A stretch of DNA of 64,000 nucleotides, taken from assembly GCA_963932905.1 (NCBI GenBank), contig CAWVRN010000016.1, positions 32,412 to 96,411 of the forward strand. The letters are read 5' to 3'. This DNA is from an uncultured Bdellovibrio sp. (GTDB lineage Bacteria > Bdellovibrionota > Bdellovibrionia > Bdellovibrionales > Bdellovibrionaceae). Each line of letters starts with the position of its first letter. The stretch's first letter is position 1. The translations under genes were made by a program, and so were the position numbers. The notes under the pieces were generated by a model. The model did no database searches. It was given only the letters and a program-made list of their open reading frames with translations, and had not been told where the DNA came from. Positions 30,079 through 54,394 of the stretch are shown one piece after another.

Positions 30079-30261
30079 TCATGGCTTGAAAGCTGCGATG
30101 ATGGCTTTGAAAATTGTTGTGAGCCATCCTTTTACTTCTTCGTGATCGACTTCCGTTTCTGCTGCTGCTTTTGCAGCCTCCTTGACTGTCGCACTCAGTT
30201 CGCCAACTGCTTGCACAACCTGCTCACCTGGATCAATCGTTAGCTCTTTCATCTTTCCCAT
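30079..30261 (-). CDS. Small hypothetical protein
   Basis: AGGAGG RBS; 60 aa, amphipathic C-terminus. Confidence 0.55.
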   Translation of the reverse strand: MGKMKELTIDPGEQVVQAVGELSATVKEAAKAAAETEVDHEEVKGWLTTIFKAIIAAFKP

Positions 30262-30598: not shown

Positions 30599-30655
30599 GT
30601 TTTTTCCTTTGTTTGTTTCATTTTTTAGTTTGGATCTTTTGAGTATTTTGGTTCG

Positions 30656-30760
30656 TGGCAAGATAGGGGTGTGATATCTCCCTCCCCAAAAATGTGGTTG
30701 CTTTGCCCCCACACCCCCAAGGCCGAGACTGTTGGTCTCGGCCATAAATGCAAGACAGGA
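30656..30760 (-). other. Putative oriT
   Basis: CACACCCCTATCTTGCCA resembles the RP4 nic region (CACCTATCCTG^CC); adjacent hairpin GGCCGAGAC-N5-GTCTCGGCC. Confidence 0.6.
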
Positions 30761-30762
30761 AC

Positions 30763-32262: not shown

Positions 32263-32277
32263 ATTCCTCCTTTCACA

Positions 32278-32523
32278 TTAAGCTTCGTTAAGAATTCGGG
32301 CATTGATGCCGTTTCTTAAAATCACGGCAATACCTTCAAGTTTTGAAAACCAGAAAAAGCTCTCATGCCAGTGCTCGATAATTCCAAGGAGCCAAACCTT
32401 GTTAATTTCTATTTCGACAATCGCGCCCGATTTGATTTCAACATCACCGACTTCAAATCTCTGAAAGCAGTTTCGTTTCAATGGTCCTTCGGAAGTCATT
32501 GGCCACCTCCTTTGGTTTCGCAA
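32278..32523 (-). CDS. Small hypothetical protein (DUF5348-like)
   Basis: GAIVEIEINKVWLLGIIE; start probably the second Met after GGAGG. Confidence 0.5.
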   Translation of the reverse strand: MRNQRRWPMTSEGPLKRNCFQRFEVGDVEIKSGAIVEIEINKVWLLGIIEHWHESFFWFSKLEGIAVILRNGINARILNEA

Positions 32524-36347: not shown

Positions 36348-36454
36348 AGGTAGACCCCTTTTTTGGTCTGCCGCTCGCCTGGTATTGGTAGAGAGACTTT
36401 TTAGTTTTTTATTTTATATCGTTCGCTGCTATTGAAGTGAGCGTTCGATATTTT

Positions 36455-37036
36455 CTACGGCCAAACTTCTGGAAACAAATTGCCTGCTGCATCTTCTGTT
36501 TCTAGTATTGAAGCAAACTTTGTTGCTTTCGCGTTTTTCAGTTTTTCCAAGTAAAAAGCCTTTTTAGGTTTCATCTTAGTTTGTGCCTTCATATGCTGAA
36601 GCACGCCGTCCTTTACTTCCTCTGGTACACTTAAGAAAAGATCACACAAAAACAAATCTGGGCTGCATACTGAAATCCCAACAGGACTCAGTAGTGCGTC
36701 GGGAAAGTCCTTCAAATTTAAAGTGACGATGGTGGAGCAGTTTTGCTGCCGAGCTAAAGCCACCACATGCTCATCATCTTTATCTGGAAGTCCGACGAGA
36801 GTATAACCACCAGCCAAAGTTTTTCTTGAAGCGCTGAATTGCTTGAACACGCCGCCCTCAATATTTTGACGAAATTTTTGTTTCGCTTCGTCGTCATCTG
36901 AGTAATTGCGAAAAACTTCATCCCAAATTTCATCTGACCAAGTGATCTGAATTAAGCTTCCCCAAGAAAGCCACAGAAACAAGCCGCGAAGAATATTCGA
37001 ATAAAGCACGTTGGCATCAAGAACGATTTTATTCAT
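36455..37036 (-). CDS. PIN-domain toxin (VapC50/PIN_3-like)
   Basis: IVLDANVLY, LPDKDDEHVVALA, IVTLNLKDFP. Confidence 0.88.
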   Translation of the reverse strand: MNKIVLDANVLYSNILRGLFLWLSWGSLIQITWSDEIWDEVFRNYSDDDEAKQKFRQNIEGGVFKQFSASRKTLAGGYTLVGLPDKDDEHVVALARQQNCSTIVTLNLKDFPDALLSPVGISVCSPDLFLCDLFLSVPEEVKDGVLQHMKAQTKMKPKKAFYLEKLKNAKATKFASILETEDAAGNLFPEVWP

Positions 37037-37421
37037 CCTTATCTATACCAAATCCGTCTTCGTCCATTTTCGACATCACCTGAGCAAATTGCTCACGCTC
37101 TTCCATATACTGAAGCAAAGAGCCTTTTGTAATTCTCCAGTGGGTGCCGACCTCATAACCCTTGAGTCTGCCAACTTTCAGCATGTGCATGATTGAGGGA
37201 CGAGAAATGCCAGCAATCTCTCCCGCTTGAGACGGCGACAGATCATCCTCAATAACGATGGCTTTTTCATCTAAGAGAAGCTCCACAAGTCCGACAAGTT
37301 CATGAAGGGAACTCTTCTTGATCTCAACGACTTCTTTAGGCTGTTTTTCTGCTCCCTTGAGTAAGGCCAAAAGGTTTTGGACCTTTTCTTCCTTTTCCTT
37401 CGTAATAAGCAGTCGTGACAT
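37029..37421 (-). CDS. Excisionase-HTH antitoxin/regulator
   Basis: LSPSQAGEIAGISRP...VGTHWRI; overlaps PIN gene; start ATG 37421 after GGAGG. Confidence 0.8.
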   Translation of the reverse strand: MSRLLITKEKEEKVQNLLALLKGAEKQPKEVVEIKKSSLHELVGLVELLLDEKAIVIEDDLSPSQAGEIAGISRPSIMHMLKVGRLKGYEVGTHWRITKGSLLQYMEEREQFAQVMSKMDEDGFGIDKDE

Positions 37422-37596
37422 AGAGCCTCCTATGTACCCATCATAATACATAACTGTATTATCTGAAACATCTTTCTTATCCTTATTATCGGCAGCATCT
37501 AACATAACTTAAGTCTCCTATATTTGTTTTGGCGCCATAACTGTCTTAAAACGCTCCCGATCTCAAACTGAGACAATCTCTAGCCCCCCGCTAGCG

Positions 37597-37977
37597 TTAC
37601 GTGCCTCTGGACCCCTTTGGAGGCTTTTGAACAGGCTTATCCTGAGTACGCGGCTTCGTTTTCGGCCCGGACGTTTTAGGTAATGGGACCTTCTTCATTT
37701 CCCAAGCTTCCGGCGCGACTACGATTGAAAGCCAGGAACCCCAAAAGTAATCCTTCGATGGAAGTTCTTTTGCGTGAAGCCACGCCACCACCACTTGTTC
37801 AGGCATACGGGTTGGAACGTATTTTACTCCACCTTGCCCGGACATATTCATGGGTGGTGCGGTGAAACCATAGCCAGCTCTTTCCTCAAGAAGTGACTTC
37901 TGATTGGTGCTCGCGCAACCGTTGATGAGACTACTCAAGAACACGAGTGAAATAAGAGTAAATACCTTCATCACCAT
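37597..37977 (-). CDS. traV: TraV-like lipoprotein
   Basis: Lipobox INGC; PTRMPEQVVVAW...VVAPEAW; follows traB. Confidence 0.75.
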   Translation of the reverse strand: MVMKVFTLISLVFLSSLINGCASTNQKSLLEERAGYGFTAPPMNMSGQGGVKYVPTRMPEQVVVAWLHAKELPSKDYFWGSWLSIVVAPEAWEMKKVPLPKTSGPKTKPRTQDKPVQKPPKGSRGT

Positions 37978-39190
37978 TCTTCCTTTCTTTTTTGAAAAAT
38001 TCTTCGGGCAAATTAACTTTGTCCTTCATAACAATCCAGACATCGCGGCCTGAACCGATAGCAACCGTCGGTGCAAGATTTTGCGCCTGTTGCAAGTACC
38101 ACTGAGCCACCATACCTGCGGCATTTGAAGCTCCGCCTGCGACGGCGTACTTCCCGGCATCACCAGTCATCATCGAAGAACCGCCCCCCAGAGGATTCGT
38201 GCTCTGGGTTGTTTGCGAGGCTTGAACTGCCTTCCCAACACCATCAACCACACCCGCGATGAATGCCATTGCAGCTACTCGGCCTTGTTTTGAGTTCACT
38301 TGCCCTTTCATGGCAAAAGATCCGTCCTTGTCGTCGGCAACAAACCCATTCACTTCGCGCTCAAACATCTTTCCTTTTTTGGAAACGCAGCTCATCTTGG
38401 TCGCCTGCATTTGCACGCGCTCAGTTGAAAGATCTCCTTCCGCCTTTGCGATCATAAAGCAGCCCGAGAGATCAATTTTATGATCGTTCGGACCAACGTA
38501 AGAAAAATCGAGCACCATCAGAACCGGATAGGTCTTTCCCTCGGGCACATCAACGCCAGTTAGAACTTTCGCTTTCACGTAGCTACCAGAAGGCAAGACA
38601 ACACCTTCGGTTTTAACGTCGCTCTTAACGGGAAACGCAATAAGATCGGGACCTTTTGCTTTCACACGACTAACTGGCGAACGAACGGGCGAAACGGTTC
38701 CACCAGGAGGTGCGTCGTAAAGCTGAATTGGTGTTTCTTGGTTCGGAGTTCCAGCATTCGGTGCGATCCCCAAGCTTTGCGGTTGTCCATTTACGGATGG
38801 CGGCAAATCTGTTTTCGACTGATTTACGTTTGTCGCAGCAGCATTCGCTTCTTGAAGTTTCTTTTCCAGTTCTGCGAGGCGAGCTTCAAGTTTACTTTGT
38901 CCTTCAAACATAGCTTGGGCCTTTTGAGAAAGAAGACGCTCTTTTCCGTAGTAGAATGTGCTTTCTCGATCATTCAGAATTCTTCCATTCTGAAAACTGA
39001 CGGCGGCACCGCGCTCAATAACTCGGTTCTCTTTTTCACCGATAAGTCCAAAAAAATTAATAACGAGCAAAACTCCAACTACAGAAAGGCCAACGATGAT
39101 TGGCTTTTTTTGAGTAAGTTCTTTGATCCTTAAGTGATGCTTTTTCCAGTCGAAGGATTTAATCTGAACTAGAATATTTTCTGCGTTCAT
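37931..39190 (-). CDS. traB: TraB/VirB10-like protein
   Basis: TM, coiled coil, Pro-rich linker, LPSGSYVKAKVLTGVD, GCF...GDLSTERV. Confidence 0.88.
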   Translation of the reverse strand: MNAENILVQIKSFDWKKHHLRIKELTQKKPIIVGLSVVGVLLVINFFGLIGEKENRVIERGAAVSFQNGRILNDRESTFYYGKERLLSQKAQAMFEGQSKLEARLAELEKKLQEANAAATNVNQSKTDLPPSVNGQPQSLGIAPNAGTPNQETPIQLYDAPPGGTVSPVRSPVSRVKAKGPDLIAFPVKSDVKTEGVVLPSGSYVKAKVLTGVDVPEGKTYPVLMVLDFSYVGPNDHKIDLSGCFMIAKAEGDLSTERVQMQATKMSCVSKKGKMFEREVNGFVADDKDGSFAMKGQVNSKQGRVAAMAFIAGVVDGVGKAVQASQTTQSTNPLGGGSSMMTGDAGKYAVAGGASNAAGMVAQWYLQQAQNLAPTVAIGSGRDVWIVMKDKVNLPEEFFKKERKNGDEGIYSYFTRVLE

Positions 39191-39192
39191 TT

Positions 39193-40113
39193 CTACTCCC
39201 CCTTCTTAGGATTGGCAGACGCTTCGTCTGATTCCATCGCTAAAATTACATCGCTACTTGAAGATGTGTTTTTAGCGACGACACGAATCAATGTTTCGCT
39301 GACACCTTTTCCTTTTGGATACAAAGTGGTCTCGTCACTCTGAGAGAGAATCGCTAAGTTTGGCTCTCCCACGGTGAGATGCCTTACATCAACTTCGACA
39401 TTTTTTTTCCAGCTCGTGTTCGTGAGCTTAAAAACATACCCGTTAAATGGAGAGCCCCGATAAATGCGAATCAGCTCAGCTCGCGCACTGGAATTTTTTG
39501 ACGGGAAGCTTTGCGAGACACGATAAAGCTTGTATCCCGACACAGCGTCGTCTCGTACCATCGCCTTTAGCAGTTCGACTTCGGAAATGACGGGAGCGTT
39601 CTCGGAATCTCCAGCTTCTGCTGATTCTCTGGATTTGAAATCGTACAGACCGTCAGCCGCCGGATCATTGGGACTTACAATGATTTTTGTCCTCACCACC
39701 GATTTATCAACCAGAAAGAAAATGACTTCGTTAACTCCATTCGTAAAGCGCGGAGTCACTTCAAGATCAGTGTAACTTGGATCGGAAGCGTTCGCGGGCT
39801 TGATCTGAAGTTTACTAGCACCCGAGATTGTTTGAACCGCCTTCGAAAAGCGAAAAATTGTCGGCCCTCCATGCTTGATGCGAACTTGCTCGGTCCCTGT
39901 GCCGTAAACTACAACTTTTGCCTCCGCACGGGATACAAGCAGGAACACCAGCAGAAGAATTCCGACGAGGTAAGTTCCAAATGCAATTTTAAAAGCGACT
40001 TTTCGAAAAAGCATTTTAAGACTCTCAATCTCAAAATTAAGTCCCTGATCCAGATCAATTGTTTTGTTATCGACCATTTGTTTTCCCTCCGTTGGCGCTT
40101 GGCTTAAATCCAT
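39193..40113 (-). CDS. traK: TraK-like protein
   Basis: Signal-like segment, ELLKAM..D..SGY; order traL-traE-traK-traB-traV. Confidence 0.65.
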   Translation of the reverse strand: MDLSQAPTEGKQMVDNKTIDLDQGLNFEIESLKMLFRKVAFKIAFGTYLVGILLLVFLLVSRAEAKVVVYGTGTEQVRIKHGGPTIFRFSKAVQTISGASKLQIKPANASDPSYTDLEVTPRFTNGVNEVIFFLVDKSVVRTKIIVSPNDPAADGLYDFKSRESAEAGDSENAPVISEVELLKAMVRDDAVSGYKLYRVSQSFPSKNSSARAELIRIYRGSPFNGYVFKLTNTSWKKNVEVDVRHLTVGEPNLAILSQSDETTLYPKGKGVSETLIRVVAKNTSSSSDVILAMESDEASANPKKGE

Positions 40114-40795
40114 CAGATCGCCCGCGCTTAAGGCTCGTGATTTCGAGATACCATTCCTTGCCTTTAACTGGAGGGACGAGCTTCATCAGCATTTCAATGA
40201 CCTCGTCCACATGGCCCACGCTCTCGCTATTGGTGTATCTCTCTCTTTGAGCTATTGCGGTGACCTTGTAGAATCCCTCGCCGGTCGCAACGACTTCGCG
40301 ATCTGTAATCCGCAAAATCTCAGAAATATTTTCGCTCTTAACTGTCTCGCGCCACTCCCTGGCTTCTTCTTCAAACTGAATCTGAAGCTGAGGAGTCATG
40401 AAGTTGGATAAACGCTTGTACTGTTCATCAATGTTGGCGGCATTCACGTTCCCGAGCATACTTAAGAAGCTAAGCGCAGCATTAACCACATAAGTGTCCG
40501 ACACCGATTGCGGAGACGCGGTCGTAAAATCCATTACCCCTGGAGCCAAGATATATTCTTTTTCACGAAGCTTTGTTTCAAGACCGTGAATCTCGAACCT
40601 TGCGAGGGCAAAGTGCATGGCGAATGCCGCAATATGAATTGCGAGAATGTACTGAAGCGTTAAGCGCTGCTTTATCATCGCCGACTTAAAGGCCACGTAC
40701 TTTGGCAGAATGCGAAGATCTACCCCTTGGTAGACACCCACAGGTGGCACTGCCACCTGTGCCGCTTCAATTCCCTTATCCATCGCTGTTAGCAT
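40067..40795 (-). CDS. traE: TraE-like protein
   Basis: Single TM then ILAPG...LGNVNAANID; start moved to Met 40795; synteny. Confidence 0.7.
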   Translation of the reverse strand: MLTAMDKGIEAAQVAVPPVGVYQGVDLRILPKYVAFKSAMIKQRLTLQYILAIHIAAFAMHFALARFEIHGLETKLREKEYILAPGVMDFTTASPQSVSDTYVVNAALSFLSMLGNVNAANIDEQYKRLSNFMTPQLQIQFEEEAREWRETVKSENISEILRITDREVVATGEGFYKVTAIAQRERYTNSESVGHVDEVIEMLMKLVPPVKGKEWYLEITSLKRGRSDGFKPSANGGKTNGR

Positions 40796-41024
40796 CTCGT
40801 TTACCTTTCCTTTTAGGTTTTGCATCAGGACTTGGACTCTGGGGCTCAATCCTTTCAGCAGCATGGTTTTGAGCAATGACATCCAGGTACTTGCGAGGCA
40901 AAATCCACGTTTCAACGCGCTCAATGATCCAGTAGCGACCATCTCTAGATAGTTTTGCGCGAGTATTGAAATTCGGTTTCCGGTCATATGTTTTTGCCCC
41001 TTGTTCGTCGGTTTGGTTGTCCAT
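40776..41024 (-). CDS. Small hypothetical protein
   Basis: GAGGGAG RBS then MDNQTDEQ...; fills the gap between traL and traE. Confidence 0.55.
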   Translation of the reverse strand: MDNQTDEQGAKTYDRKPNFNTRAKLSRDGRYWIIERVETWILPRKYLDVIAQNHAAERIEPQSPSPDAKPKRKGKRDANSDG

Positions 41025-41065
41025 AGTTCTCCCTCTTGGTTTGTTGTTGTTTTCATTTCTTCCTC

Positions 41066-41380
41066 TCAATCTGAAAATCTGCGGTCGTTGCTCTTCGGAT
41101 TCACAAGGCCGGGAAGCTCCATCCGAAGGCGCGAAAAGGGCCAGTGAAAGAAAATTCCTTTTGGATATTTCTTTTTAATCACTGGTCCAAACCCCAGACA
41201 CAAACTCAGCAAAGTGAACATCGTTCCCCACGAGTAGAAGAGGACTCCAAAGACAAGAATGATGAAGAGCGCGATGAAGACATCCGACAGTTCCCAAATA
41301 TCGAAAACCATAATTGGCGAGTCGATGGTTTGGCTCACCAGGGATGAGTATTTTGCCTTCAAGAGCTCTTGCTTACGCAT
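41066..41380 (-). CDS. traL: TraL-like protein
   Basis: TIDSPIMVFDIWELSD, two TMs, KKKYPKGIFFH. Confidence 0.75.
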   Translation of the reverse strand: MRKQELLKAKYSSLVSQTIDSPIMVFDIWELSDVFIALFIILVFGVLFYSWGTMFTLLSLCLGFGPVIKKKYPKGIFFHWPFSRLRMELPGLVNPKSNDRRFSD

Positions 41381-41816
41381 TTAAACTCCTCGGGCTCACA
41401 ATATGATTTAGTGAAAACACCCCGCCACCACCGCCGATGTCGAAAATGTTCTTAACCCATGTAGGCGCAGTGCCGAGGACCAGTGCCGCAACGATACAGA
41501 GTACAGCGATTCCAAATCGTTGCTCTTTCAAGTTCCAGCCTGCCGACATCACGCAGAGCCCAGCAAAAATCCGCGCTCCCCACGAGAAGAGCACCGAATC
41601 CACAATACGAAGCAGCGTTCCCGCCGCTTCGAGTTTGTCGCTGGCATCAGCTCCGGGAATTTTAGTTCCCGCAAAAGCATTCGTGTGCGAAAGACAAATG
41701 AGAAGAATGGTAACTAGAATAAAAAAGTACCACTCCTCATGTCTTCGAGGGTTCGGACCCCTCACTTGAGAGCCGTGGATTAATGATCCACACAATAAAA
41801 GGCGTTCTCCGAGCAT
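41373..41816 (-). CDS. Conjugative pilin (TraA/VirB2/TrbC-like)
   Basis: Long leader ending NAFA, two hydrophobic helices; directly before traL. Confidence 0.7.
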   Translation of the reverse strand: MLGERLLLCGSLIHGSQVRGPNPRRHEEWYFFILVTILLICLSHTNAFAGTKIPGADASDKLEAAGTLLRIVDSVLFSWGARIFAGLCVMSAGWNLKEQRFGIAVLCIVAALVLGTAPTWVKNIFDIGGGGGVFSLNHIVSPRSLNA

Positions 41817-41928
41817 AGGTAATCTCCTATCCTTGCTCGAAGTCAGCTCGCCGTTTTGTGGTAGAGAGACTTCTTTTGTTTTTCTTTTGAGCCTATTTGT
41901 GGTGGTGGCTCATTTTATTTTTATAAAA

Positions 41929-42681
41929 TCAATTCGCCGCTTTCAATAGTCGAAGGATCTCGTCGAATTCGTGATATCCTTCAATGGCTGGCAAAAGTGC
42001 TTTCCGCTTTGTGTCCGCAATCAGCAGAAATGGCACACCTTTGATCCCATGTTTTTTTAGATCACTAGGATCAGCTCTTGAGATCGGAACAATTCTTTCT
42101 GCATCCGGCACGGGACCGCTATCTACTTGCAAAGCTTCGACATGAAATCCGCCGTCTTGAAGTTTCTTTAGAACCTGAAACATTCGTCGGCAATGAGGAC
42201 AGGTGGATTCAAAATACATCCTCAAGCGAAAGCGTGACGGATCAAGATCTACATTTTGCTCTTTTACTTTCGGCGGAGCTGGCGCCACCGATACTACATT
42301 TGATGGAACCGTCATCTCGCCATTTTTTGCCATGTACTCAGCCATTCGCTCTTGAAGCTTTGTTTGAAGATCATTCTTCTTCTTCATCAATTCAAACCAC
42401 TGCTTGATATTGTCGTCCGTCGGATTTCTTGCGACCTCCATAAATGGCTCCGGTGGCGTGTAGTCTCCCTCCTTGAAGAATTCCTTATTCTTCGGATCAA
42501 GGAACGTCTTCCACGGAAATTTGCCGTCTTGCTTATCCGTCAGACTCGGCTCTTTTTTGGGAGCGTCTTTTGAGCTTTGCTTATCGCCCCAGAAGTCGAT
42601 CTTAGAGTCGAAGTATTCTAAATTTTCTGCTTGGGCAAAAGATGACAAAAGCAAAAAAAGAATCGTTTTACGAATTACCAA
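41929..42681 (-). CDS. Thioredoxin-fold conjugation protein (TraF/TrbB-like)
   Basis: TTG after AGGAGG; signal; ARNPTDDNIKQW; YFESTCPHC; GVP. Confidence 0.75.
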   Translation of the reverse strand: MVIRKTILFLLLSSFAQAENLEYFDSKIDFWGDKQSSKDAPKKEPSLTDKQDGKFPWKTFLDPKNKEFFKEGDYTPPEPFMEVARNPTDDNIKQWFELMKKKNDLQTKLQERMAEYMAKNGEMTVPSNVVSVAPAPPKVKEQNVDLDPSRFRLRMYFESTCPHCRRMFQVLKKLQDGGFHVEALQVDSGPVPDAERIVPISRADPSDLKKHGIKGVPFLLIADTKRKALLPAIEGYHEFDEILRLLKAAN

Positions 42682-43837
42682 GTTGAACCTCCTTCGAATC
42701 AATTTCTCCTCGAATCGCTCTCGCAATTCGTGCATCTTCCAGAGATTGAAAAACCTTTGGATGCTTAACGCCGTCGTTCACAAATGAAGCCCACTCGATA
42801 CTTGGAACTCGGCCCCGGATTCCTGAAACGCAATTCGGACAACCTTCTTCATGCCTCATGCGCATTTCACTTAAAATCCCCGGATGATTCTTTGAAAACC
42901 AATCAGTCACCTCGACGGATGGTTTTTCTGCACACTCAGTACAAAGTTTTTGCTCAAGTCTCTGCGCAACCGAAAGGCGCAAATTGGATTCTAAGACGAG
43001 TCTTTCAACGCCAAGGCCAGCAAGTCGCTCGATTACTTCTAGCGATCCATTTGCATGAAGAGTGGTAAAGACCAAGTGCCCAGTTTCCGCTGCTTGAAAA
43101 CAAAGTCTCGCGGTTTCGGCGTCTCGCACCTCTCCAACGAGGATAACATCAGGATCTTGCCGAAGCACTGACCTGAGAGCGTCAGCAAAGGTCATCTTGC
43201 GATTTACTTGCACTTGATTGAGGCCCTCAATGCGATATTCAATCGGATCTTCCAAAGTCACAATGTTAAGACGCTTTGGATTTAACGCCTTAAGCAGCGC
43301 ATAGAGAGTTCTCGTTTTACCACTTCCCGTAGGACCTGAAATTACAATGACTCCATCCTCGTATTGCAGGGCTCTTTCAAGCATCTTTTGCTCCGATTCT
43401 AAAAAGCCAAGTTCTGAAAGATTGAAGCTCGCATCAAGATTCAAAAGTCGCATAACAACTTTTTCGCCAAAGTGAGTTGGCAAAAGACTCACACGCAAAT
43501 CAAGCCGTAGCGACGGCAATGAAGCCCTGCCGTCCTGCGGTTTACCGCTCACTCCGATAGAAAGTCCGAAGATCCGTTTTGCTTCTAGAATCAAGCTCTC
43601 TCGGTGCTGAAGCTCTATTGACCTCACGAGAACGAGGTTCCCGTCTACGCGAAGTCTAAAATCAATTCCAAGCTCGGTCGGTTCAATGTGAATGTCACTG
43701 GCACCTTTTGCTTTGGCTTCGGTCACCAAGTCCTTAAGAAGTTTTGCGTAAGGTCCGACATCAGAAAGTAATTGTTCTGCCGTTCGACGTTTGGCGACCG
43801 TAATGCCGTGCTCGTTTTGAAGTTTTAAGCTTGTCAC
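42668..43837 (-). CDS. GspE/PilB family secretion ATPase
   Basis: ASDIHIEP, PQDGR, GPTGSGKT, TLEDPIEY, LRQDPDVILVGEVRD, TGHLVFTTLH, CxxC..CxxC; GTG 43837 after GGAGG. Confidence 0.9.
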   Translation of the reverse strand: MTSLKLQNEHGITVAKRRTAEQLLSDVGPYAKLLKDLVTEAKAKGASDIHIEPTELGIDFRLRVDGNLVLVRSIELQHRESLILEAKRIFGLSIGVSGKPQDGRASLPSLRLDLRVSLLPTHFGEKVVMRLLNLDASFNLSELGFLESEQKMLERALQYEDGVIVISGPTGSGKTRTLYALLKALNPKRLNIVTLEDPIEYRIEGLNQVQVNRKMTFADALRSVLRQDPDVILVGEVRDAETARLCFQAAETGHLVFTTLHANGSLEVIERLAGLGVERLVLESNLRLSVAQRLEQKLCTECAEKPSVEVTDWFSKNHPGILSEMRMRHEEGCPNCVSGIRGRVPSIEWASFVNDGVKHPKVFQSLEDARIARAIRGEIDSKEVQLGNS

Positions 43838-46800
43838 TTCGCACCTCCGCACGCAGCAGGAATGGTAAGGCTCGCGGCTTTTGCTTGAGCGGCTGCTGGC
43901 ATATCCTTGCAGGCAAAAGTGCGACTCCAAATCACGAACAGATAGCCTTTGAGTTTTCCGTTTACGAGCCTCATTGTCTCGCGGGCATTTACGACCGATT
44001 CCAAAATTCCCACGTTCTGACCTTCTCGAAAGCAGGAACTGGATTGCGGATAAATCATCTGCCACTTTTCGTCTGGACTATTGGGCATGGAGTGCAGCAC
44101 TTCTACAGAAAGACTCTTGATACGAGAGGCCACCATCAACGCGCCCGCCATTGATGCCGGACCTGAGTAAGTGCCATAGCGCGGATAAAAGACGCCCCAT
44201 CCGTTACAAACCGAATGAGTGCTTGGCGGAAACATATTGATCTTTGGAACGTCGAAACTACACATGGCCGAGTCAGGGGAAGGAGCGCCGCCCCCTTCCC
44301 CTGTAATAGAAGTCGCGGCACCCTTGAGGAGGCATAACTTTGGCGCAAGCCCCGATGCTAAGAACAGAGGCTGAGTCATGTCATTCTTGCCAGTATTCCA
44401 GTGCGCTCCGAAATGTTCGCTCATTCCATCAAAACAAACTTTCTCCATTCTTGTGCCACCGGCAGGCATTGTTTGAAATGTCAGTCCCGCAAGAGGTACT
44501 GCAATTGTTCTGGCCTGAAAACTCTGAGTGTCGTCATCGGCCTCAGTCCCAAAGGGCTTAGGAAAAATCTTAGCAAGCTGAGCTGACGCTCCTGGGATTC
44601 CTGAAAAATAACTCGTCTTGGGCTCCGGCCACACTTCAATGAAAGTCTGTGGCACATAGTAAGAAATCGCAGCACAGGGTCTTGGAGGATATCCACAAGT
44701 GCATCCCCCGATATTTAATTCCAGGCATGAAGTGAACGCTGGCGTACTTGCTACGGTACAAATATTCGGAATTTCCGCTTGAACATTGCCCGCGAGGAAG
44801 AGGGAGGCTGCTATAGCGCGAAGATTCTGAGCGAAATGCTTAATTCTCTCTACAGCTCCTCCCTTCTTCGTTACACGCAGCATTTCAAGCACTGCCTCAT
44901 GCTTCGTATTGATGAATCTCAAGAAATCAGGCTTAAGATAAAGTTTTAAAAACTTCGTCTCGATTCCATCAAATACTTGAGCGAACGCCTCGAAAGTTCG
45001 AAGCCTTGAGAACTCGCGGCCTGTGATGAGATCTTCTTTTCGCTTTGCTCTGGAGATCGCCTCATTCAAACTTGAATTCTGTGAATCGAATCCTCCGGCG
45101 AGTAAGTTCAGTTTTGCCGACTGCGCTGTTTCTGACATTGAGTGCGATTCAACCTCGCGATCCTCTTTTCCCGCCAATTCTTGGAAAAGCTTGATTGTTT
45201 CCGAATCTGAAGAGTGACAAGCAATTCTTGTTCTAAAGTTTTGCATAAGAACAAGAGCGGCTCTTTGGCTTCCTACCGAATCCATCAGTGAACTGACCGA
45301 TTGAGTCGCGACAATCACGGCGGGCTTTGATTCCCGAGCCTTTGCCATAAAAGTGTCGTCACCGATTGTGCCACCACCTCCGCAGGTCACAACATCTTGG
45401 TACTCATCAATTATGAGCGCTGTCGTGCAGAGTTTTTCTTGCTCTTTCAATTCACTCAGCATATTCAATACGGCCTGCTGATAGTGAAGCTTGATGAATG
45501 TTCCCATTGAGCGCGCAAGTCCTGGTTGATTGATGTCAAAGAGGAGAATTTTTCCTTCACGAATCAACTGCTCCATTGAGCGAATCGTGAGGTTCTCCTC
45601 CTTCGGACATAAAACGCGATTTGCCGCGAACTCCTGGAACTGATTGATGAATGCCGTACTTGTTGCGACGATTCCAGATCTTACGCGGTCCTCAAGCTGC
45701 GAGTATTCGTTTTCGAAATACTCCATAGCCCGTTCAATATTAAATCGCTCTTCTTCAGTGAAGGCGCCCGTATCAAGACGTTTTCGTAAATCGTCTGACA
45801 AATTCTCTTTCGAAGCACGAACGATAGCTCGATAGAGATCAAGCAACGTAAAGTACCCATGTTCTGCCGCACAATAGACGATGGCGTTCTTAATCAAGTT
45901 CGAAGATGAAATATCCCAGAAGGGTGAGTCCGAAGACTTACCCATAAAATTTACAGCAGCAGCTCTAACCATTTCGGCTAGCTCGGTGAACTTTGAATTC
46001 CGAAGCGGGTTTTCGATATAAACGGGGTTAAAGCTCACCGAACCTCGAAGAGAGATTTTGACGATTTTATCCCCAAGGCCTGCACGTCTGATAATTTGCT
46101 CTGCGTCCGCAAGGAAAGTCCGTTTAGGATCAATCGCAAGGATCGCGGGTGAGCTTTCACCGGCCCGCAAGATTTGGCGCAAATAGCGAAGCACGGTCCC
46201 TTGGGTTTTTCCACTACCGATACTTCCTGAAATCATAATCCCACCGTTGAGGCCACGGCTCGGAATTTTAACCCAACTCTCCGACTCTCCTGAATTCTGA
46301 ACAACTGAATGCGTAAGTTGTCCTGGCGTTGTCCCCAGAACGAGTTCGCCTTCTTCAACTTCGGGTGCATCCAGCTTGTGAATGTCATTAAACGAAAACT
46401 TTAGTTTCGCGATTCCGCGCAAGAACATGCGTATAATTAGACCGATGGTGAAAGCAATGTTCGCACTTAGGAGGGCGACAATCCCTGAAGGCTGAAACCC
46501 CTCTGTAAACCGCAGGAAGATTGGCCCAATGAAGTCAGCGATTTGTTTTTTACACGCGAAGTAAGTGACGGCGCTGGTGACAACAGAAACGCACTCGGCT
46601 CTTCCGAATTTTAAGTGTCTTGATTTCCCTTCAAGAACAGCGAGTTTACTTCCTTGTTTTTCAAGTCCAATGGATCTTTTAAGATAAATCGAACCGAACG
46701 AAATATTCACCATCGCGCAAGAGATTGTGATCCAAAAGAGCTTCGCATTCGCCTCTAGCTGCTGAAGCGCAAACTGCAGCAGATCTGGGTGAAGCCTCAG

Positions 46801-46896
46801 ATGTGCGAGATATAAATACACGAGTCCAAATCCGGCGAGCGCCATGAGCGCGAGCGAGAGAGGGACATCACTCTGTGCAGTTTGTGTTCGTGCCAT
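43834..46896 (-). CDS. Type IV coupling protein (TraD/VirD4-like) fused to a C-terminal TraU-like Cys-rich domain
   Basis: N-terminal TMs, GSIGSGKT, IDPK, IIDEYQ, ATQS; after ~aa 700 signal-like segment then SC....GGCTC, SYYVP..FIEV, WGVFYPRYG, KWQMIYP. Confidence 0.8.
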   Translation of the reverse strand: MARTQTAQSDVPLSLALMALAGFGLVYLYLAHLRLHPDLLQFALQQLEANAKLFWITISCAMVNISFGSIYLKRSIGLEKQGSKLAVLEGKSRHLKFGRAECVSVVTSAVTYFACKKQIADFIGPIFLRFTEGFQPSGIVALLSANIAFTIGLIIRMFLRGIAKLKFSFNDIHKLDAPEVEEGELVLGTTPGQLTHSVVQNSGESESWVKIPSRGLNGGIMISGSIGSGKTQGTVLRYLRQILRAGESSPAILAIDPKRTFLADAEQIIRRAGLGDKIVKISLRGSVSFNPVYIENPLRNSKFTELAEMVRAAAVNFMGKSSDSPFWDISSSNLIKNAIVYCAAEHGYFTLLDLYRAIVRASKENLSDDLRKRLDTGAFTEEERFNIERAMEYFENEYSQLEDRVRSGIVATSTAFINQFQEFAANRVLCPKEENLTIRSMEQLIREGKILLFDINQPGLARSMGTFIKLHYQQAVLNMLSELKEQEKLCTTALIIDEYQDVVTCGGGGTIGDDTFMAKARESKPAVIVATQSVSSLMDSVGSQRAALVLMQNFRTRIACHSSDSETIKLFQELAGKEDREVESHSMSETAQSAKLNLLAGGFDSQNSSLNEAISRAKRKEDLITGREFSRLRTFEAFAQVFDGIETKFLKLYLKPDFLRFINTKHEAVLEMLRVTKKGGAVERIKHFAQNLRAIAASLFLAGNVQAEIPNICTVASTPAFTSCLELNIGGCTCGYPPRPCAAISYYVPQTFIEVWPEPKTSYFSGIPGASAQLAKIFPKPFGTEADDDTQSFQARTIAVPLAGLTFQTMPAGGTRMEKVCFDGMSEHFGAHWNTGKNDMTQPLFLASGLAPKLCLLKGAATSITGEGGGAPSPDSAMCSFDVPKINMFPPSTHSVCNGWGVFYPRYGTYSGPASMAGALMVASRIKSLSVEVLHSMPNSPDEKWQMIYPQSSSCFREGQNVGILESVVNARETMRLVNGKLKGYLFVIWSRTFACKDMPAAAQAKAASLTIPAACGGAK

Positions 46897-47501: not shown

Positions 47502-47789
47502 TTAAAAAATATTTCTGTACTGCATCGCCTGCATTCGAGCTTGCTCAATTTTTTCCTGTTGTGGTGGCGCAATAAAAAGCACGCACCCAATTCCTCGAAT
47601 CACGTTTCCCAGAGTTCTCAATACCCAAAGCCCTGCAATTTTCTGCCAAGCTTGCTTGGCTCCAAAAACAAGCTTCATAAAAAATTCGTAGATTTTAAGT
47701 CGCCAAGGTTTCCAGAATGGATTTGTAAATAGCCATTCGCCCTCGTTTGAACCGAGGATCACAGTTTGGTTCATTACGTTTTGTTTCAT
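47502..47789 (-). CDS. Small hypothetical protein
   Basis: ATGA overlap with upstream gene. Confidence 0.55.
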   Translation of the reverse strand: MKQNVMNQTVILGSNEGEWLFTNPFWKPWRLKIYEFFMKLVFGAKQAWQKIAGLWVLRTLGNVIRGIGCVLFIAPPQQEKIEQARMQAMQYRNIF

Positions 47790-48043
47790 GCGGCACTTCC
47801 TTTTTTATTTTTCGAGTTCTGATTCAGAGGAAGCTGTTCAACGACTGACTGAGTCTTTATGGATTTCATTTGCGCAACGGCCTCTGCTGCCCACGGGGGA
47901 ATTGGCAGCTCATCGCCGGATGATTTTGATTTTCTATAGGTAAGAAGATCAGGCGCGTAGTTGCAGCACAGACAGTGTGAATGGGTGACAAGCTTTTCGA
48001 GTGTTCGCTCGTTGCATCGGGGACAAGTTCTTAACGTACTCAT
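47786..48043 (-). CDS. Zinc-ribbon small protein, first gene of tra operon
   Basis: AAGGAG RBS then MSTLRTCPRC...CLCC. Confidence 0.65.
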   Translation of the reverse strand: MSTLRTCPRCNERTLEKLVTHSHCLCCNYAPDLLTYRKSKSSGDELPIPPWAAEAVAQMKSIKTQSVVEQLPLNQNSKNKKGSAA

Positions 48044-48098: not shown

Positions 48099-48114
48099 TG
48101 CAAAGAGGTAACCA
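48099..48114 (-). promoter_or_regulatory. sigma54 -24/-12 promoter of the tra operon
   Basis: TGGTTA-CCTCT-TTGCA, exact GG-N10-GC spacing, 56 nt upstream of the first start codon. Confidence 0.7.
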
Positions 48115-48186
48115 GAGCCGCGCACAGGCTAAGTTGTTGGAAAGATTGGTTTTTGATTTTAAGTTGTGCGCGCGGTAAAAGTCGAT

Positions 48187-48297
48187 TCGTCGAGAACTCG
48201 CGAATTGAAATCGAAACGGCAATGTTCTCTGTTGAACTTTCGCTAGAGATTCGACGGCCCGTGCCCAACCTCTTCCAGCACTATCGAATTCTCGTCA
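48187..48297. promoter_or_regulatory. Upstream activator-like repeats of the tra promoter
   Basis: TCGTCGAGAACTCGCGA (48187), CTGTTGAACTTTCGCTA (48229), CTATCGAATTCTCGTCA (48281); same motif as 54294-54394. Confidence 0.7.
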
Positions 48298-48689: not shown

Positions 48690-50252
48690 CTAGGAATCCC
48701 GGACAGCACTCATAACCATTCTCACAGAGTTATCCACCATGCGCCTCAAGTCACCTTTGCCGTTGGCGTGGTCTTTTCGACTAACGACGTCCATGCTTTC
48801 CCAAATCCCCAAGGCCTGGCACTGACTGCGTAGGGATGACCGAGCCACTCCAAGCTTCCTGGCGGTCTCAGACAAGTTATATTCGCTTGCTTGGTATGTC
48901 TTAAGGATAAGTGTTCTAACTTCGTTTTCATGACGAGCATTCATTTGCTCAAGAGATTCAAGGGTTGTCACGTTTTCAACATTCGCAGCACCTTCAAGCT
49001 CCCCGTATTTCTCGATATGCTCTGGCAAGATGATTGGGCCGCTTACTAAGACCGAAAGTCTTTCGATTAAATTTTCCAGCTCGCGGACATTTCCAGGCCA
49101 CGAATAGGCTCGAAGCATATCAAGCGAATCGGGATGCAACTGTTTGGGTACGCCGTCAGATTGTGATGGTCGTCGTTTTTCTAGAAAGAACTCGCATAAG
49201 ACTTCAACATCGTTGGGCCGCTCAGCAAGTCTTGGCAGATCAATCTTGATCTGCTTCATCCGATAGATCAAATCAGCCAAAAACTTGTCTTCATTTACGA
49301 GGACTTTCAAGTGCGGCTTTGAGGCGAATACCAATCGCACATCAACATGTTTTTCGGTGCTACCGCCGACTCGTCGAACTTTTCGATCCTGAATAAATCG
49401 CAATAGCATCGCCTGCGCTTCGTCACTCAAATGATGAACTTCATCTAAGAAAACGGTTCCGCCATTAGCCACCTCAAGGAGACCGATTTTTGATTCAGCT
49501 CCAGTGAAAGCACCTTTTTCGCTCCCGAATAATTCGCTAGCGATAAGTTCCGATTTTTTGAATTGCGTGCAATCAATTGTACGAAACTGTTTCTCTTTTC
49601 GATCTGAATTCTGATGAATCGCTCGGGCAAACAACTCTTTTCCAGTTCCCGTTTCTCCGTAAATTAAAACTGATAAATCTGATTTCGCTGTTTGCAAAAC
49701 AAGATCTGCGGCCGCTTTCATTTCACGATCAACAGATACAACTCCGATTTTTTTGAGAGAGTCAGGCACTTGACTCATGCGGCGAGTGCGATTTCCCAGG
49801 AACCCATTGAATTTGGAGCGAAACTTCGTCAGAGCTTCAGTGATAAAAATTTGCAGCTTTTCTTGCTGCCCGACGAATTCCTTATAGAGGAACTTGTCAG
49901 CGCCATTTTTTAGCCATAAGCGAAGGCTCTCTGGTGTTGTATCCGACGACATCATAACTATCTCGATATAAGAGTTCACTCTTTTGATCGGACGTATGAA
50001 GTCTGCTCCTAAAGTAGTCTTCTCTTTTGATTCATGAAAATGATGATCCATAAAAACCAAAAAGACGTTGAAGGGATTTTTCTTTATCGAATCAAGGGCC
50101 AGCACTGGATGCGAATGAAACTCGACATCGAAAGCGCGCTCTGCTCCAAAGGCTGAATCGAGCGATATCTTGAGCCCGTCACGAAAGCAGCTTTCGTCAT
50201 CTACAAAAATAACTCGTGGTTGTTCCATAGGACCCTCCCTCAATGCGTTCAA
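48690..50252 (-). CDS. sigma54-dependent response regulator (NtrC-like bEBP)
   Basis: REC (VDDE, FMDH, K), GETGTGKE, SELFGSEKGAFTGA, FLDEV, WPGNVREL, Fis-type HTH. Confidence 0.93.
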   Translation of the reverse strand: MNALREGPMEQPRVIFVDDESCFRDGLKISLDSAFGAERAFDVEFHSHPVLALDSIKKNPFNVFLVFMDHHFHESKEKTTLGADFIRPIKRVNSYIEIVMMSSDTTPESLRLWLKNGADKFLYKEFVGQQEKLQIFITEALTKFRSKFNGFLGNRTRRMSQVPDSLKKIGVVSVDREMKAAADLVLQTAKSDLSVLIYGETGTGKELFARAIHQNSDRKEKQFRTIDCTQFKKSELIASELFGSEKGAFTGAESKIGLLEVANGGTVFLDEVHHLSDEAQAMLLRFIQDRKVRRVGGSTEKHVDVRLVFASKPHLKVLVNEDKFLADLIYRMKQIKIDLPRLAERPNDVEVLCEFFLEKRRPSQSDGVPKQLHPDSLDMLRAYSWPGNVRELENLIERLSVLVSGPIILPEHIEKYGELEGAANVENVTTLESLEQMNARHENEVRTLILKTYQASEYNLSETARKLGVARSSLRSQCQALGIWESMDVVSRKDHANGKGDLRRMVDNSVRMVMSAVRDS

Positions 50253-51640
50253 GCTTCTTTCGCCGCAAGACTAAGCTGAACGCCGGTTTGTACTTTTGCA
50301 TTTCGATTCATCGACATCGGCAAAAAAATTCTGACTGCGGTGCCGACTCCTTCCTTAGAAGATATCAAAATTCTGCCATTGTATTTTTCGATTATTTTCT
50401 TGGCCCACTGTAAACCCAAACCTTTGCCGTTGGGTTTACCAAAAGACCCACCTTTTTCTAAGATCGTCTTTAAAACTGACTCCGAAATTCCAGAACCGTT
50501 ATCGACAATTGAAATGCAGCACTCATTCGCAATTCGTGTGCAGTTTACGTCAATGCTTCCCCGGTCAGAAACGGCATAGAGTGCGTTGTCGATTAAGTTT
50601 GAAATAATCCGTTTGAAGTCACTGACTTGCATTTCAATGAAGGTATCCTCGGTATTTAGTTTTGTTTGGACGGACACTTGTGGCGTCTGCCTACACATCA
50701 GGCTTTTTTCAGCAACTATTTCGTTCAAGGCAAGATCGACAGACATCGGAAGTTTTTGTATCGGCACTCTGTACTCAGAGCTTTTGCTGGAGGCTGTGTA
50801 TTGGCTGATAACATCGTTTGCGATGTCACTGATCCTCTGCGCCGAGTGATTTAAAACACCCTTGATCGTCGGGTCGAGATGAACTTGTGCCGCATTGAGC
50901 GCCACCTGAAGACTCACAATCGGTGAGCGAATATCATGTGCAACTTGTCTTGCAACATCAAGCGCCGCTTTTGCTTCGGCTGCTGCCTTAGTTACTTCAA
51001 ATTGGTAACTCAAGTTTTCGGCCAAAGAGGAGAATTCACTAATTTTAAATTTTGGTGTTTTTTTCTTGTCGCCCGTTTGGGTTTCTAAGATCTTCATCAA
51101 TTCATTAAGCTCGATTCGAATTCGTGAAAATCCGATTGAAAGACCAGCAAACAATATTACGGCAAGAAGTACGAATCCGATTGCGTTCTTCCCTGCGTTT
51201 TTCCAAATTCCTGCAATTAGATCCGAATTGTCGAACGTAATCGAGATATGTCCCATCCAATTCGAAGCATCCTCAGAAAAGTAGAGATCCGTATCCATGC
51301 GATGAAGTCCTGATGAGGAAGTTTTCAGCTTATTGCAACTTTGAATTGTTTCTGAGATCGACTTAATTTCGATGCAGAAGATTTGTGAGTTCTGCGCAAG
51401 TTCGTTCGCCCGAATTCTTGCTTCAATAAGACTTCCTTGAATAAGCGGTTGGCGAACGACCGCTGCGAAAGTTTCAAATGTGAGTTTCTGACTATCGAGA
51501 CGGGAAGTTTTGTTAACTCGATAGTCGTTCCACGCCAACAGTCCGCTAATGGCGGTGCTGACAAGGAGGACGATTGGAATAAAAATTCTCAGAAAGTATC
51601 GTTGAATAGATCTTGTCGGAGATTTCCCTAGAATTCCCAC
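50249..51640 (-). CDS. Sensor histidine kinase
   Basis: Two TMs around a periplasmic domain; AHDIRSP, NLIDNA, DNGSG, GKGLGL. Confidence 0.93.
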   Translation of the reverse strand: MGILGKSPTRSIQRYFLRIFIPIVLLVSTAISGLLAWNDYRVNKTSRLDSQKLTFETFAAVVRQPLIQGSLIEARIRANELAQNSQIFCIEIKSISETIQSCNKLKTSSSGLHRMDTDLYFSEDASNWMGHISITFDNSDLIAGIWKNAGKNAIGFVLLAVILFAGLSIGFSRIRIELNELMKILETQTGDKKKTPKFKISEFSSLAENLSYQFEVTKAAAEAKAALDVARQVAHDIRSPIVSLQVALNAAQVHLDPTIKGVLNHSAQRISDIANDVISQYTASSKSSEYRVPIQKLPMSVDLALNEIVAEKSLMCRQTPQVSVQTKLNTEDTFIEMQVSDFKRIISNLIDNALYAVSDRGSIDVNCTRIANECCISIVDNGSGISESVLKTILEKGGSFGKPNGKGLGLQWAKKIIEKYNGRILISSKEGVGTAVRIFLPMSMNRNAKVQTGVQLSLAAKEA

Positions 51641-53085
51641 TACAATCCCTTCACAAGATGGAGTCTCGGTGTATAGCGGAAAGTAGCCTCTTCAGAGATC
51701 ATGTTGGTTTGGCCGATAATGTAAAGCGGAACACGCCATCCCGGAACCATCAGCTGCTCTTTACGGAGCTGCTCATTGATCTGCTGAAACAGTTCACTTC
51801 TGACAGTCCAATTTTCTTCTTGTCTGGCACGCTTGTATTTTTCGGCAAGAGCCGGACCAATATAAGTTCCAAAATCTTTTACAAGAAATGTCGGGAGAAG
51901 AGCAATAAATCCTTCGGGATCATTAAACCCACCAGCCCATCCACCAAATATTACGTCAGGTTTTTTCTCAACTATTTTCGTCATTTCAGATGGAGAAATT
52001 TTGATAATCTCAATTTGGAAGCCGTGCTCTTTCGCAATTGCTTGAGCGTCATTTCCCTTAAGAAAGTCATCGAATGTAGCGCCTATGAACGCAAGCCTGA
52101 GTGGTTCTGTTTTTTCATATTTTTTATGCGTAATCTTTGGAGCTTGTGTAGCTGCTAAATGACCCGCAACTCCTTTGGGAATGACGCCGGTTGCTCGCTC
52201 AAGTTCCAATTTCTTACAGCCCTTATCGAGGATCTCTTCAATCAATCCCATCGCTCGGATGCGCATTTCCGGTGTATTGAAATGAGTTCCGTGCGGATGC
52301 CACCACGCTGATGTTTGAGCATAGCTTATTTGGTTCACTGTTTTGAGCTTTTCAAATCCGCTCACTTTTTGCATACCGACCTTTGTGGATAGGGTCGCAC
52401 CAGGAACGTAATCAGGAAGACCGACGGCGGGCACATTGAGATCATGATCACCAAAGAAAACAAGCTGCCATTCGCGGATGCTGATAGCTGACGATTTTGG
52501 ATATTTCTCATTTACTTCGAGATTCCAATTCGCACCTTTTTTTAAAAGACGATAAGGTCCTGAGCCAACGAGGGGTTCTGAAGAATCTTTATCGAAGCTC
52601 CAATCAATAGGAACGACACCAACTTGGTCTCGACTTAGAGCTTTAAGGATCGACACGTTGGGCTCTTTAAGGCGAATAATGAGGACGTCTGAAGCTGGGA
52701 CTTCGATGGATGAAATGCTGCCGAGAAAATTACTCGACTGGGATTTTTTCTGAATGACACGATCAATGGTATATTTAATGTCTTTGGCTTCGAGCTTTTT
52801 CCCATTGGAAAAAAAGCGATCTTTTCTGATTTTGAATTTAATTGTGAGACCCTTGTCCTCAAACGACCAACTCTCAGCAAGGCCCGGAGTAACATTACCC
52901 ATCTTATCGGTATCAACCATAGGCTCGAGAATTTGACCCAATACAATGTGCTCTGCGAATTGATTAACCTCAGCGGGATCGCGGGGAAATGTTGGCGGTA
53001 CATATCCATATTTTTTTGGTGCTGCCGAAACCATTGATGATGTCATAAAAATAATTCCTCCTATGAGAACAAGCCACCTTTTCAT
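51640..53085 (-). CDS. Family-5 (OppA/DppA-like) solute-binding protein, no permease nearby
   Basis: Signal peptide; PGLAESW..., FKIR..RFFSNG..LEAKDIKYTI, VGSGPY. Confidence 0.85.
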   Translation of the reverse strand: MKRWLVLIGGIIFMTSSMVSAAPKKYGYVPPTFPRDPAEVNQFAEHIVLGQILEPMVDTDKMGNVTPGLAESWSFEDKGLTIKFKIRKDRFFSNGKKLEAKDIKYTIDRVIQKKSQSSNFLGSISSIEVPASDVLIIRLKEPNVSILKALSRDQVGVVPIDWSFDKDSSEPLVGSGPYRLLKKGANWNLEVNEKYPKSSAISIREWQLVFFGDHDLNVPAVGLPDYVPGATLSTKVGMQKVSGFEKLKTVNQISYAQTSAWWHPHGTHFNTPEMRIRAMGLIEEILDKGCKKLELERATGVIPKGVAGHLAATQAPKITHKKYEKTEPLRLAFIGATFDDFLKGNDAQAIAKEHGFQIEIIKISPSEMTKIVEKKPDVIFGGWAGGFNDPEGFIALLPTFLVKDFGTYIGPALAEKYKRARQEENWTVRSELFQQINEQLRKEQLMVPGWRVPLYIIGQTNMISEEATFRYTPRLHLVKGL

Positions 53086-53882
53086 TAACTGGCCTGCTTT
53101 CCTGCAATCTCAACCAACTTCTTAGCAAATGAAGTTAGCTCTTGATCCTCAAATGCCTCTGTGTTTTGTCGTAAGAGGTCTTGATATTTTTGATTTGTTT
53201 CTCCAGTTGAGCGCTGGAACTGAACCATTCGATACAACGCCCACAACGAATGCAGCCTGCCGATTGGAGGTCTCTTTGTTCCCTGAAAGGGCGCATGAAC
53301 CTCGTTATAGTCAAATGGTTGATTCACTAGCCGATCGAGCAGATTCACAAGAAATAATTCTTGATGGGCCATTTCGTGAACAACAGAAACGGCCAGTTGT
53401 TGCACTGTTTGCTGTCTGACCCCATCCCCAATTAAAATTAATCCGAATATATGGGGATGCGAGGCGCTTCTGAAATTCACGCCCCTTACCCGCAGAAATC
53501 CACTGATATTTTCTTTTCGCAACGACGAAAGATCTTTGTCCGCCTGATCAACTAACATCAGTGCTTCTTGAAGTTTACTTCGTGTCTCAACTTCGAAAGC
53601 CCCGATACTCGAACCTTCGTAATCGACAAAGAATGTTGCTTCAATAAGGCTTTTCGCGGCAACACTCAGTTGGAGTGGATCAATGGCCTGACTCAAATTT
53701 GGCAACGAAATTTGATCGGGGTGAACTTTTCCGTAAAACCCCATGCACAACGCTGAAAGACTCTTAGCAAGGGGATCGACCTGCAATCCAGTTGCTAAAC
53801 GTCTTCGAAAAGAGGGAGCGATATCTTGCAGACACCACTCCCCGCGGCTCAATTCTGAGAGGATTCGTTCAATCAGACTCAT
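53085..53882 (-). CDS. HExxH-motif protein (alphaKG-HExxH/TIGR04267-like putative peptide-modifying enzyme)
   Basis: SASHPHIFGLI, VVHEMAHQELF, APFQGTKRPPIGRLHSLWA; no signal peptide. Confidence 0.8.
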   Translation of the reverse strand: MSLIERILSELSRGEWCLQDIAPSFRRRLATGLQVDPLAKSLSALCMGFYGKVHPDQISLPNLSQAIDPLQLSVAAKSLIEATFFVDYEGSSIGAFEVETRSKLQEALMLVDQADKDLSSLRKENISGFLRVRGVNFRSASHPHIFGLILIGDGVRQQTVQQLAVSVVHEMAHQELFLVNLLDRLVNQPFDYNEVHAPFQGTKRPPIGRLHSLWALYRMVQFQRSTGETNQKYQDLLRQNTEAFEDQELTSFAKKLVEIAGKQAS

Positions 53883-53883
53883 T

Positions 53884-54231: not shown

Positions 54232-54247
54232 TGCAGAGACGGTGCCA
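54232..54247 (-). promoter_or_regulatory. sigma54 -24/-12 promoter of the signalling operon
   Basis: TGGCAC-CGTCT-CTGCA, near-consensus, 40 nt upstream of ATG 54192. Confidence 0.85.
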
Positions 54248-54293
54248 ACTGCCTAATGATTAAACAGTGTTTGATGATGAAATATCCTTAAAT

Positions 54294-54394
54294 TCGTCGA
54301 GAACTCGCCAATACCTATTTATTCAACGATAGCGGTCGTCGAAATCTCGCCAAAGGCGGTGTCTTTTAGGCTAACTGGTGTCGAAATCACGCCA
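54294..54394. promoter_or_regulatory. Three 17-bp activator-site-like repeats at exact 42-bp spacing
   Basis: TCGTCGAGAACTCGCCA (54294), TCGTCGAAATCTCGCCA (54336), GTGTCGAAATCACGCCA (54378). Confidence 0.8.

Follow-up and report, generated by a model that had tools for sequence, protein, structure and literature searches.

What reads the inverted repeats that stand in front of two promoters in a mobile element of an uncultured Bdellovibrio? The DNA analysed here, referred to as the window, is a 64-kb stretch of one contig of this genome, and the initial annotation of its sequence described helically phased 17-bp dyad repeats shared by two sigma54 promoters. Our analysis suggests that the repeats form six dyads, three per promoter, which are very probably the upstream activating sequences (UAS) of the element's own NtrC-type regulator, through which it would switch on a signalling operon and the DNA-transfer (tra) genes. 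We consider this the most likely reading because the dyads are conserved, because their clusters are exclusive to two places in the genome, and because a different dyad is found where the helix-turn-helix of the activator differs.

The region was identified with Pfam as an integrative conjugative element (ICE) carrying an integrase, a relaxase, MobC, F-type tra genes and a coupling protein. Upstream of the tra genes lies an operon encoding a precursor, an HExxH enzyme, a binding protein, a kinase and a regulator, with one of the dyad arrays in front of it. The AAA+ domain of the regulator matched PF00158 above the cut-off, and both the GAFTGA motif and the receiver aspartate are intact. Its helix-turn-helix scored below the Pfam cut-off (HTH_8, E 0.0084) and gave one PDB match (E 0.001). 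No tRNA genes were found in the 64-kb window. Copies of a 380-bp arm, 94% identical, are present at 25288-25667 and ~21234-21609 of the window and at 280516-280900, 351330-351709 and 283025-283185 of contig C1. A short core that matches tRNA-Ser at its 3' end closes the arm, which on C1 abuts this tRNA; element junctions appear to follow one another in tandem in the window. Between 54737 and 63369, upstream of the cassette, lies cargo consisting of a squalene-synthase-like gene, TetR regulators, RND efflux and an outer-membrane factor, and relatives carry other cargo in its place. A PIN-domain and HTH_17 gene pair, likely a toxin-antitoxin, is inserted among the tra genes at 36455-37505.

A de novo palindrome search of related promoters returned a 16-bp dyad, TG(G/T)CGA-N4-TCG(A/C)CA, as the repeat unit, with two 6-bp halves flanking 4 free bases. 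The imperfect dyad proposed earlier stands, but its 17-bp unit is replaced by one of 16 bp in a 6-4-6 layout. The dyad is consistently asymmetric, with G in the promoter-distal half of 59/69 sites and A in the proximal half of 65/69. The three copies reported upstream of the signalling operon (54294, 54336 and 54378) are indeed exactly 42 bp apart, and the core GTCGA-N4-TCGCC recurs at 54296, 54338 and 54380 with 0, 0 and 1 mismatch. The tra copies, which had been called degenerate at +42 and a further +52, carry 1, 2 and 2 mismatches to this core at 48189, 48231 and 48283. Spacing is accordingly 42/42 bp in the signalling array and 42/52 bp in the tra array. A 17-mer common to both promoters was also found, exactly twice in the genome, but at 48185 and 54292; the position first given for it, 48187, is in the register of 54294, a slip of two bases. 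A generic repeat finder run over 46800-56900 recovered a two-copy 21-mer and missed the triple array. A fourth, overlapping dyad was observed at 48180-48195 (centre -99.5) and is kept in 7 of the 12 tra promoters of the window's own family, family A. All sites are numbered relative to the predicted promoter with its GG set at -25/-24 by the usual convention (Table 1).

Table 1. Coordinates of the promoter elements, dyads and genes discussed in the text (window positions).
Feature	Position	Strand	Remarks
Sigma54-type -24/-12 element before precursor gene	54232..54247	-	7/7 core columns invariant, n=13 promoters
Signalling dyad 1	54295..54310	.	centre -81.5; halves nearly invariant, n=13 promoters
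Signalling dyad 2	54337..54352	.	centre -123.5
Signalling dyad 3	54379..54394	.	centre -165.5; 1 mismatch to core
Sigma54-type -24/-12 element, tra leader	48099..48114	-	weak -24 flank, consensus -12; 6/7 core columns invariant, n=12
IHF-like site (predicted) near -48, tra promoter	48130..48142	-	7/9 positions
Tra-leader dyad 1	48188..48203	.	centre -107.5
Tra-leader dyad 2	48230..48245	.	centre -149.5; degenerate in window
Tra-leader dyad 3	48282..48297	.	centre -201.5; degenerate in window
Precursor, 102 aa	53884..54192	-	signal-peptide-like start (by eye); invariant Asp near C-terminus
Alpha-ketoglutarate HExxH-type peptide-modifying enzyme (predicted)	53085..53882	-	TIGR04267 51.6 bits, cut-off 40
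Family 5 solute-binding protein	51640..53085	-	PF00496 above cut-off
Membrane histidine kinase	50249..51640	-
NtrC-type sigma54 response regulator	48690..50228	-	receiver, AAA+ domain with GAFTGA, C-terminal helix-turn-helix; predicted binder
First tra-leader gene, 85-aa CxxC/CxxC protein	47786..48043	-	start 48043 preferred over ATG 48088
Conjugation region downstream of leader	27785..46896	-	coupling protein, ATPases, TraF/E/K/TrbI/TraC-like, MobC, relaxase; Pfam
Tyrosine integrase, element end	25747..26967	-	PF00589

The claim that both promoters are of the sigma54 type was upheld by a -24/-12 element at each of them, on the minus strand downstream of the array, with GG and GC ten bases apart. 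By the -24/-12 consensus, we take these to be sigma54-type elements. The host encodes rpoN (TIGR02395, 453.6 bits, above the cut-off). The number of sigma70 sites, 10 compared to 14.4 in shuffles, was not above chance. At the tra promoter, an IHF-like site predicted from the consensus lies near -48, and the host has an IHF-alpha-like gene, which at 111 bits falls below the cut-off of 120.25. Transcription is predicted to start near 54221 at the signalling promoter and near 48088 at the tra promoter. As the latter position is that of an ATG, translation of the first leader gene is likelier to begin at 48043. Related loci include conserved non-canonical -12 elements in which GA or GG replaces GC (the tra promoters of L012-L019, and L035 and L086). 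In L037 (7480-8290), L084 (6700-7600) and L102/L103 the signalling operon and the tra leader are divergent, and in L037 and L084 a single intergenic region holds two separate three-site arrays.

Conservation was assessed in family A with 13 signalling promoters and 12 tra promoters, a set without duplicated or nearly duplicated loci and without several that were short or truncated. All 25 have three sites, each within 1 bp of -81.5/-123.5/-165.5 or -107.5/-149.5/-201.5, although these loci are kin rather than independent trials and the family matrices were trained on the promoters that they score. The DNA farther upstream is unrelated among these promoters, and their regulators are as little as 62% identical. 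Half-site columns were conserved at 0.97 and 0.88, compared to 0.71 and 0.56 for the DNA between sites. The held-out locus L035 has three family A sites at -81.5/-122.5/-164.5. Among 19 related genome loci, 18 carry the titles of Bdellovibrionota-type organisms. A 94%-identical cassette (L002) lies in a record titled Candidatus Altimarinota, reflecting either misbinning or transfer beyond the phylum.

A single site carries little meaning. The genome contains 10 exact matches to the core, and a matrix built without the window's own sites gave 499 matches of at least 8 bits compared to 561 in one simulated genome. Three-site clusters behaved differently from single sites, which occur at the chance rate and away from promoters; the condition under which the initial annotation would have given up its reading thus applies to single sites but not to clusters. 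Only two clusters were found in the 4.55-Mb genome, both of them at these promoters and 60-110 bp from a -24/-12 element, and none in one simulated genome; the genome-wide scan that the initial annotation proposed thus confines the clusters to the two promoters. At 12 bits the signalling cluster alone remained. None of 300 shuffles reached the observed three-site score for either promoter, and a matrix made solely from five distant tra promoters (15 sites) found exactly the six window sites. Of the 401 genomes of the phylum, 4 had the exact paired-dyad pattern, each time directly upstream of a family A precursor. Since the three positives other than this genome duplicate training loci, the informative part of this result is 0/397. 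The paired dyad had no match in viral contigs.

Helical phasing was claimed for the repeats, and in family A the sites do lie about whole turns apart (4.0/4.0 in the signalling array and 4.0/4.95 in the tra array of the window). The two arrays are, however, placed 6.6 (signalling) and 9.1 (tra) turns from their -12 elements, an offset of ~2.5 turns that puts them on opposite faces relative to the promoters. In families B and C the spacing is not an integer number of turns, so that phasing is not a general requirement. The second proposal, that the better-matching array belongs to the signalling operon, holds as a sequence pattern. Signalling arrays outscored tra arrays in 10/10 family A pairs with a matrix trained on tra sites alone, one of them by a margin of 0.8 bit. 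This makes a lower threshold for autoactivation plausible in family A. The pattern is not general: with the top three scores summed, signalling exceeded tra in 6/6 pairs of family B and in 1/2 of family C, where the other pair is reversed, and family D is apparently reversed as well. The idea that weak tra sites are peculiar to this window was overturned by the same family A pairs.

These features raise the alternative that the regulator binds at both promoters but at one of them, most likely tra, represses or poises it, with transfer depending on a further factor, for example the product of a leader gene. The half-turn rotation of the tra array relative to the signalling array, its weaker sites and its non-consensus -24 flank would fit such a role, as would two features of family B, namely the GA that replaces GC at -12 of the tra element and the sigma70 region 4-like proteins encoded by the leaders. 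On the other hand, every site is 80-200 bp upstream, clear of the -24/-12 elements. An IHF-like site between array and promoter, which fits looping, was found in 6/7 family B tra promoters and, at 8 or more of 9 positions, in 6/12 family A tra promoters (5 of these at -48; 0.09 in shuffles) compared to 1/13 family A signalling promoters. The site near -48 may also reconcile the offset of the two arrays. We therefore regard repression or poising as unlikely, and activation at both promoters remains the preferred reading.

The protein most likely to bind the dyads can be addressed by comparing cassettes. The helix of the regulator is nearly invariant in family A. Family B regulators, ~30% identical, have another helix, and three CTCCAA-type dyads are present in 14/14 of their promoters, none of which has a family A site; the held-out locus L103 fits the family B matrix. 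In family C, CTRAAA-type dyads occur at tra positions matching those of family B, a positional match being the one use made of this matrix, which is A/T-rich, was trained on 4 promoters and has many unrelated matches. Among YcaO-type cassettes whose regulator has an S-R-S-T-V-R helix, a TGGCGG-type dyad precedes the regulator at 9/13 loci, and none was found in the available DNA of the remaining 4. L126 and L129 have dyad variants of their own, one per locus, that recur at both promoters. Across otherwise distant regulators, Arg-x-x-x-Arg helices pair with half-sites starting (T/C)GGC; L102/L103 are an exception, having a quite different helix and nevertheless a B-like motif. Collectively, these comparisons speak well, though indirectly, for reading of each dyad by the regulator of the same cassette, and the earlier proposal that the repeats are sites for the activator is backed by the change of motif with its helix-turn-helix, as it is by conservation and exclusivity.

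In principle the main reader could be a different activator, encoded by the host (a sigma54 regulator) or by a co-resident YcaO-type element. The genome holds ~23 other sigma54-activator-like matches, two of which have a similar helix and a similar motif, and the regulators on contigs C1 and C22, with the S-R-S-T-V-R helix and TGGCGG-type dyads, share the half-site start with the window. The window sites, however, scored no higher than 7.1 out of 25.4 bits with the matrix for family D, the family whose sites lie on these contigs. The motif also travels with the cassette across host genera, is absent from 397 of the 401 genomes, and changes when the cassette's own helix changes. This makes reading by another activator very unlikely. 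Conversely, family D sites scored 15-21.5 bits on the family A matrix, including 21.5 and 15.0 bits for the tra sites of the neighbouring YcaO-type element, so one-way cross-activation from the window regulator to family D sites is possible. Family D site spacing differs from that of the window arrays, and no clear -24/-12 element was called at the C1 tra promoter. A structural role for the repeats (origin of transfer, iterons, integrase arm sites) or a role as RNA hairpins, with the promoters incidental, would suit palindromes confined to an integrative element but is extremely improbable, given that the genome scan found no three-site cluster near relaxase or integrase, that the distance to -24/-12 is fixed to 1 bp, that the sites are upstream of the predicted transcripts, and that the motif goes with the regulator helix rather than with the tra module, since different motifs precede CxxC leader genes that are related.

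The YcaO-type cassettes resemble that of the window in having a sigma54 regulator, a binding protein, a kinase and a precursor, and differ from it in tailoring enzyme, helix and dyad. Three are present in the same genome (G000), at C1 537395-542975, C22 14478-20027 and C30 497-6227, each with a sigma54 regulator, a secreted 91-101 aa protein, a binding protein, a small YcaO-like protein and a kinase; the copy on C1 lies ahead of tra genes. Further cassettes of this genome, at C1 377614-384566, C3 97053-104026 and C44 10650-16340, have MFS and DUF4135 genes or hydrolase and methyltransferase genes. Each has a sigma54-type element, and separate dyads, of a GTTCG type, are present in those on C1 and C3.

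If the dyads are the UAS of the element's own regulator, the kinase, aided by the binding protein, would phosphorylate the regulator, and three dimers on three same-face sites would assemble an AAA+ hexamer. The step from three dimers to one hexamer follows the precedent of NorR, for which all three enhancers are essential (PMC2831303). DNA looping, probably assisted by IHF at the tra promoter, would then open the sigma54 complex, a mechanism that we infer for the window regulator from the biology of bacterial enhancer-binding proteins (bEBPs; PMC7175178). With the stronger array in front of its own operon, the regulator would first feed back positively on itself, and a higher threshold would have to be passed before transfer. 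The least certain step is the input, which may be a product of the secreted precursor modified by the HExxH enzyme.

The enzyme matched ChlH (8s5f, E 3.2e-06) and has both the HExxH motif and the later conserved His; no match to it was found in plasmids. The precursor had no Pfam match, and the gene list contains no transporter genes beside the binding-protein gene. One Asp is kept in all 37 distinct precursor ends, of which 16 have A-R-x-D and 3 the exact ARMD (L015, L019 and L084, where these ends adjoin the HExxH enzyme). PflC/PosC perform oxidative cleavage before an ARMD motif, and bulky residues blocked cleavage (PMC12636437). The window precursor has L-A-A-D at the ARMD-like position, with Leu where PflC/PosC-type cleavage calls for Ala or Gly; for this reason hydroxylation appears the likelier modification, as a lead only. 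A recombination breakpoint at ~52950, at the start of the binding-protein gene, separates a promoter-precursor-enzyme block of one lineage from a binding protein-kinase-regulator block of another, and L028 is the reciprocal mosaic, with the precursor/enzyme and receptor/regulator lineages exchanged. The idea of pherotypes, in which the receptor tracks the precursor type, found no support: among 11 binding-protein sequences 1 column separates precursor types compared to 22 that separate regulator lineages, a poor showing for a receptor specific to the peptide. As the binding protein does not track precursor type and mosaics occur, two options are left, an active product that stays the same across precursor types or a different ligand altogether.

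Enhancer-binding proteins such as NtrC and LuxO provide a known setting for arrays of this kind. The UAS of bEBPs in general (PMC7175178) are dyads 80-200 bp upstream, with GAFTGA, a receiver and looping, all of which have observed or predicted counterparts in the window. The window sites depart from them in their new half-site sequence and in having a conjugation operon as target. NorR at E. coli norVW (PMC2831303) likewise uses three enhancers, but with a GT-N7-AC core and NO sensed via a GAF domain, compared to a 6-4-6 dyad and a receiver domain with a kinase here; the window dyads and activator do not have the NorR box or the GAF domain, and, unlike those of NorR, the window arrays are common to two promoters of a mobile element. 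ICEBs1 RapI-PhrI and ICEMlSym TraR also place an element-encoded signal circuit over transfer genes, using an imported peptide and an anti-repressor or a TraR-type regulator, and the accessible part of this ICE review (PMC5812530) has no mention of sigma54 driving both the transfer genes and the element's own signalling operon. The window circuit differs from both: it belongs to a predatory Gram-negative lineage and is made up of a precursor, an HExxH enzyme, a binding protein, a kinase and a sigma54 activator. The enzyme resembles ChlH and PflC/PosC (PMC12636437) in its TIGR04267 match, its HExxH and later His; the precursor differs from PflC/PosC substrates in its signal-peptide-like start and in lying in a sensor operon rather than a biosynthetic cluster. 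In the literature searched, which comprised titles and the starts of abstracts and lay mostly outside subscription journals, no description of the motif, the cassette or sigma54-controlled conjugation was found. Together, these results suggest that the cis-element is of a known kind with a new half-site sequence, and that the sites, which are real, probably function as activator sites.

A wider picture is possible rather than probable. ICEs of the Bdellovibrionota may share a modular sigma54 enhancer code over conjugation, in which an HExxH-modified secreted peptide would lead to autoactivation via a strong triple array and to transfer via a weaker one, with helix and dyad swapped as a unit among co-resident elements; the window activator might also read neighbouring YcaO-type tra sites, and not the reverse. 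The sites turn a guess from gene neighbourhood into a wiring diagram in which two promoters are named as those the regulator would control and the rest of the genome is excluded. The two promoters offer a direct reporter assay for finding the signal, and the family provides several natural helix-dyad pairs for the study of DNA recognition and for orthogonal sigma54 switches. If the reading is confirmed, conjugation in this element, in a manner described for no other in the literature searched, would be gated by sigma54 and ATP-driven activation.
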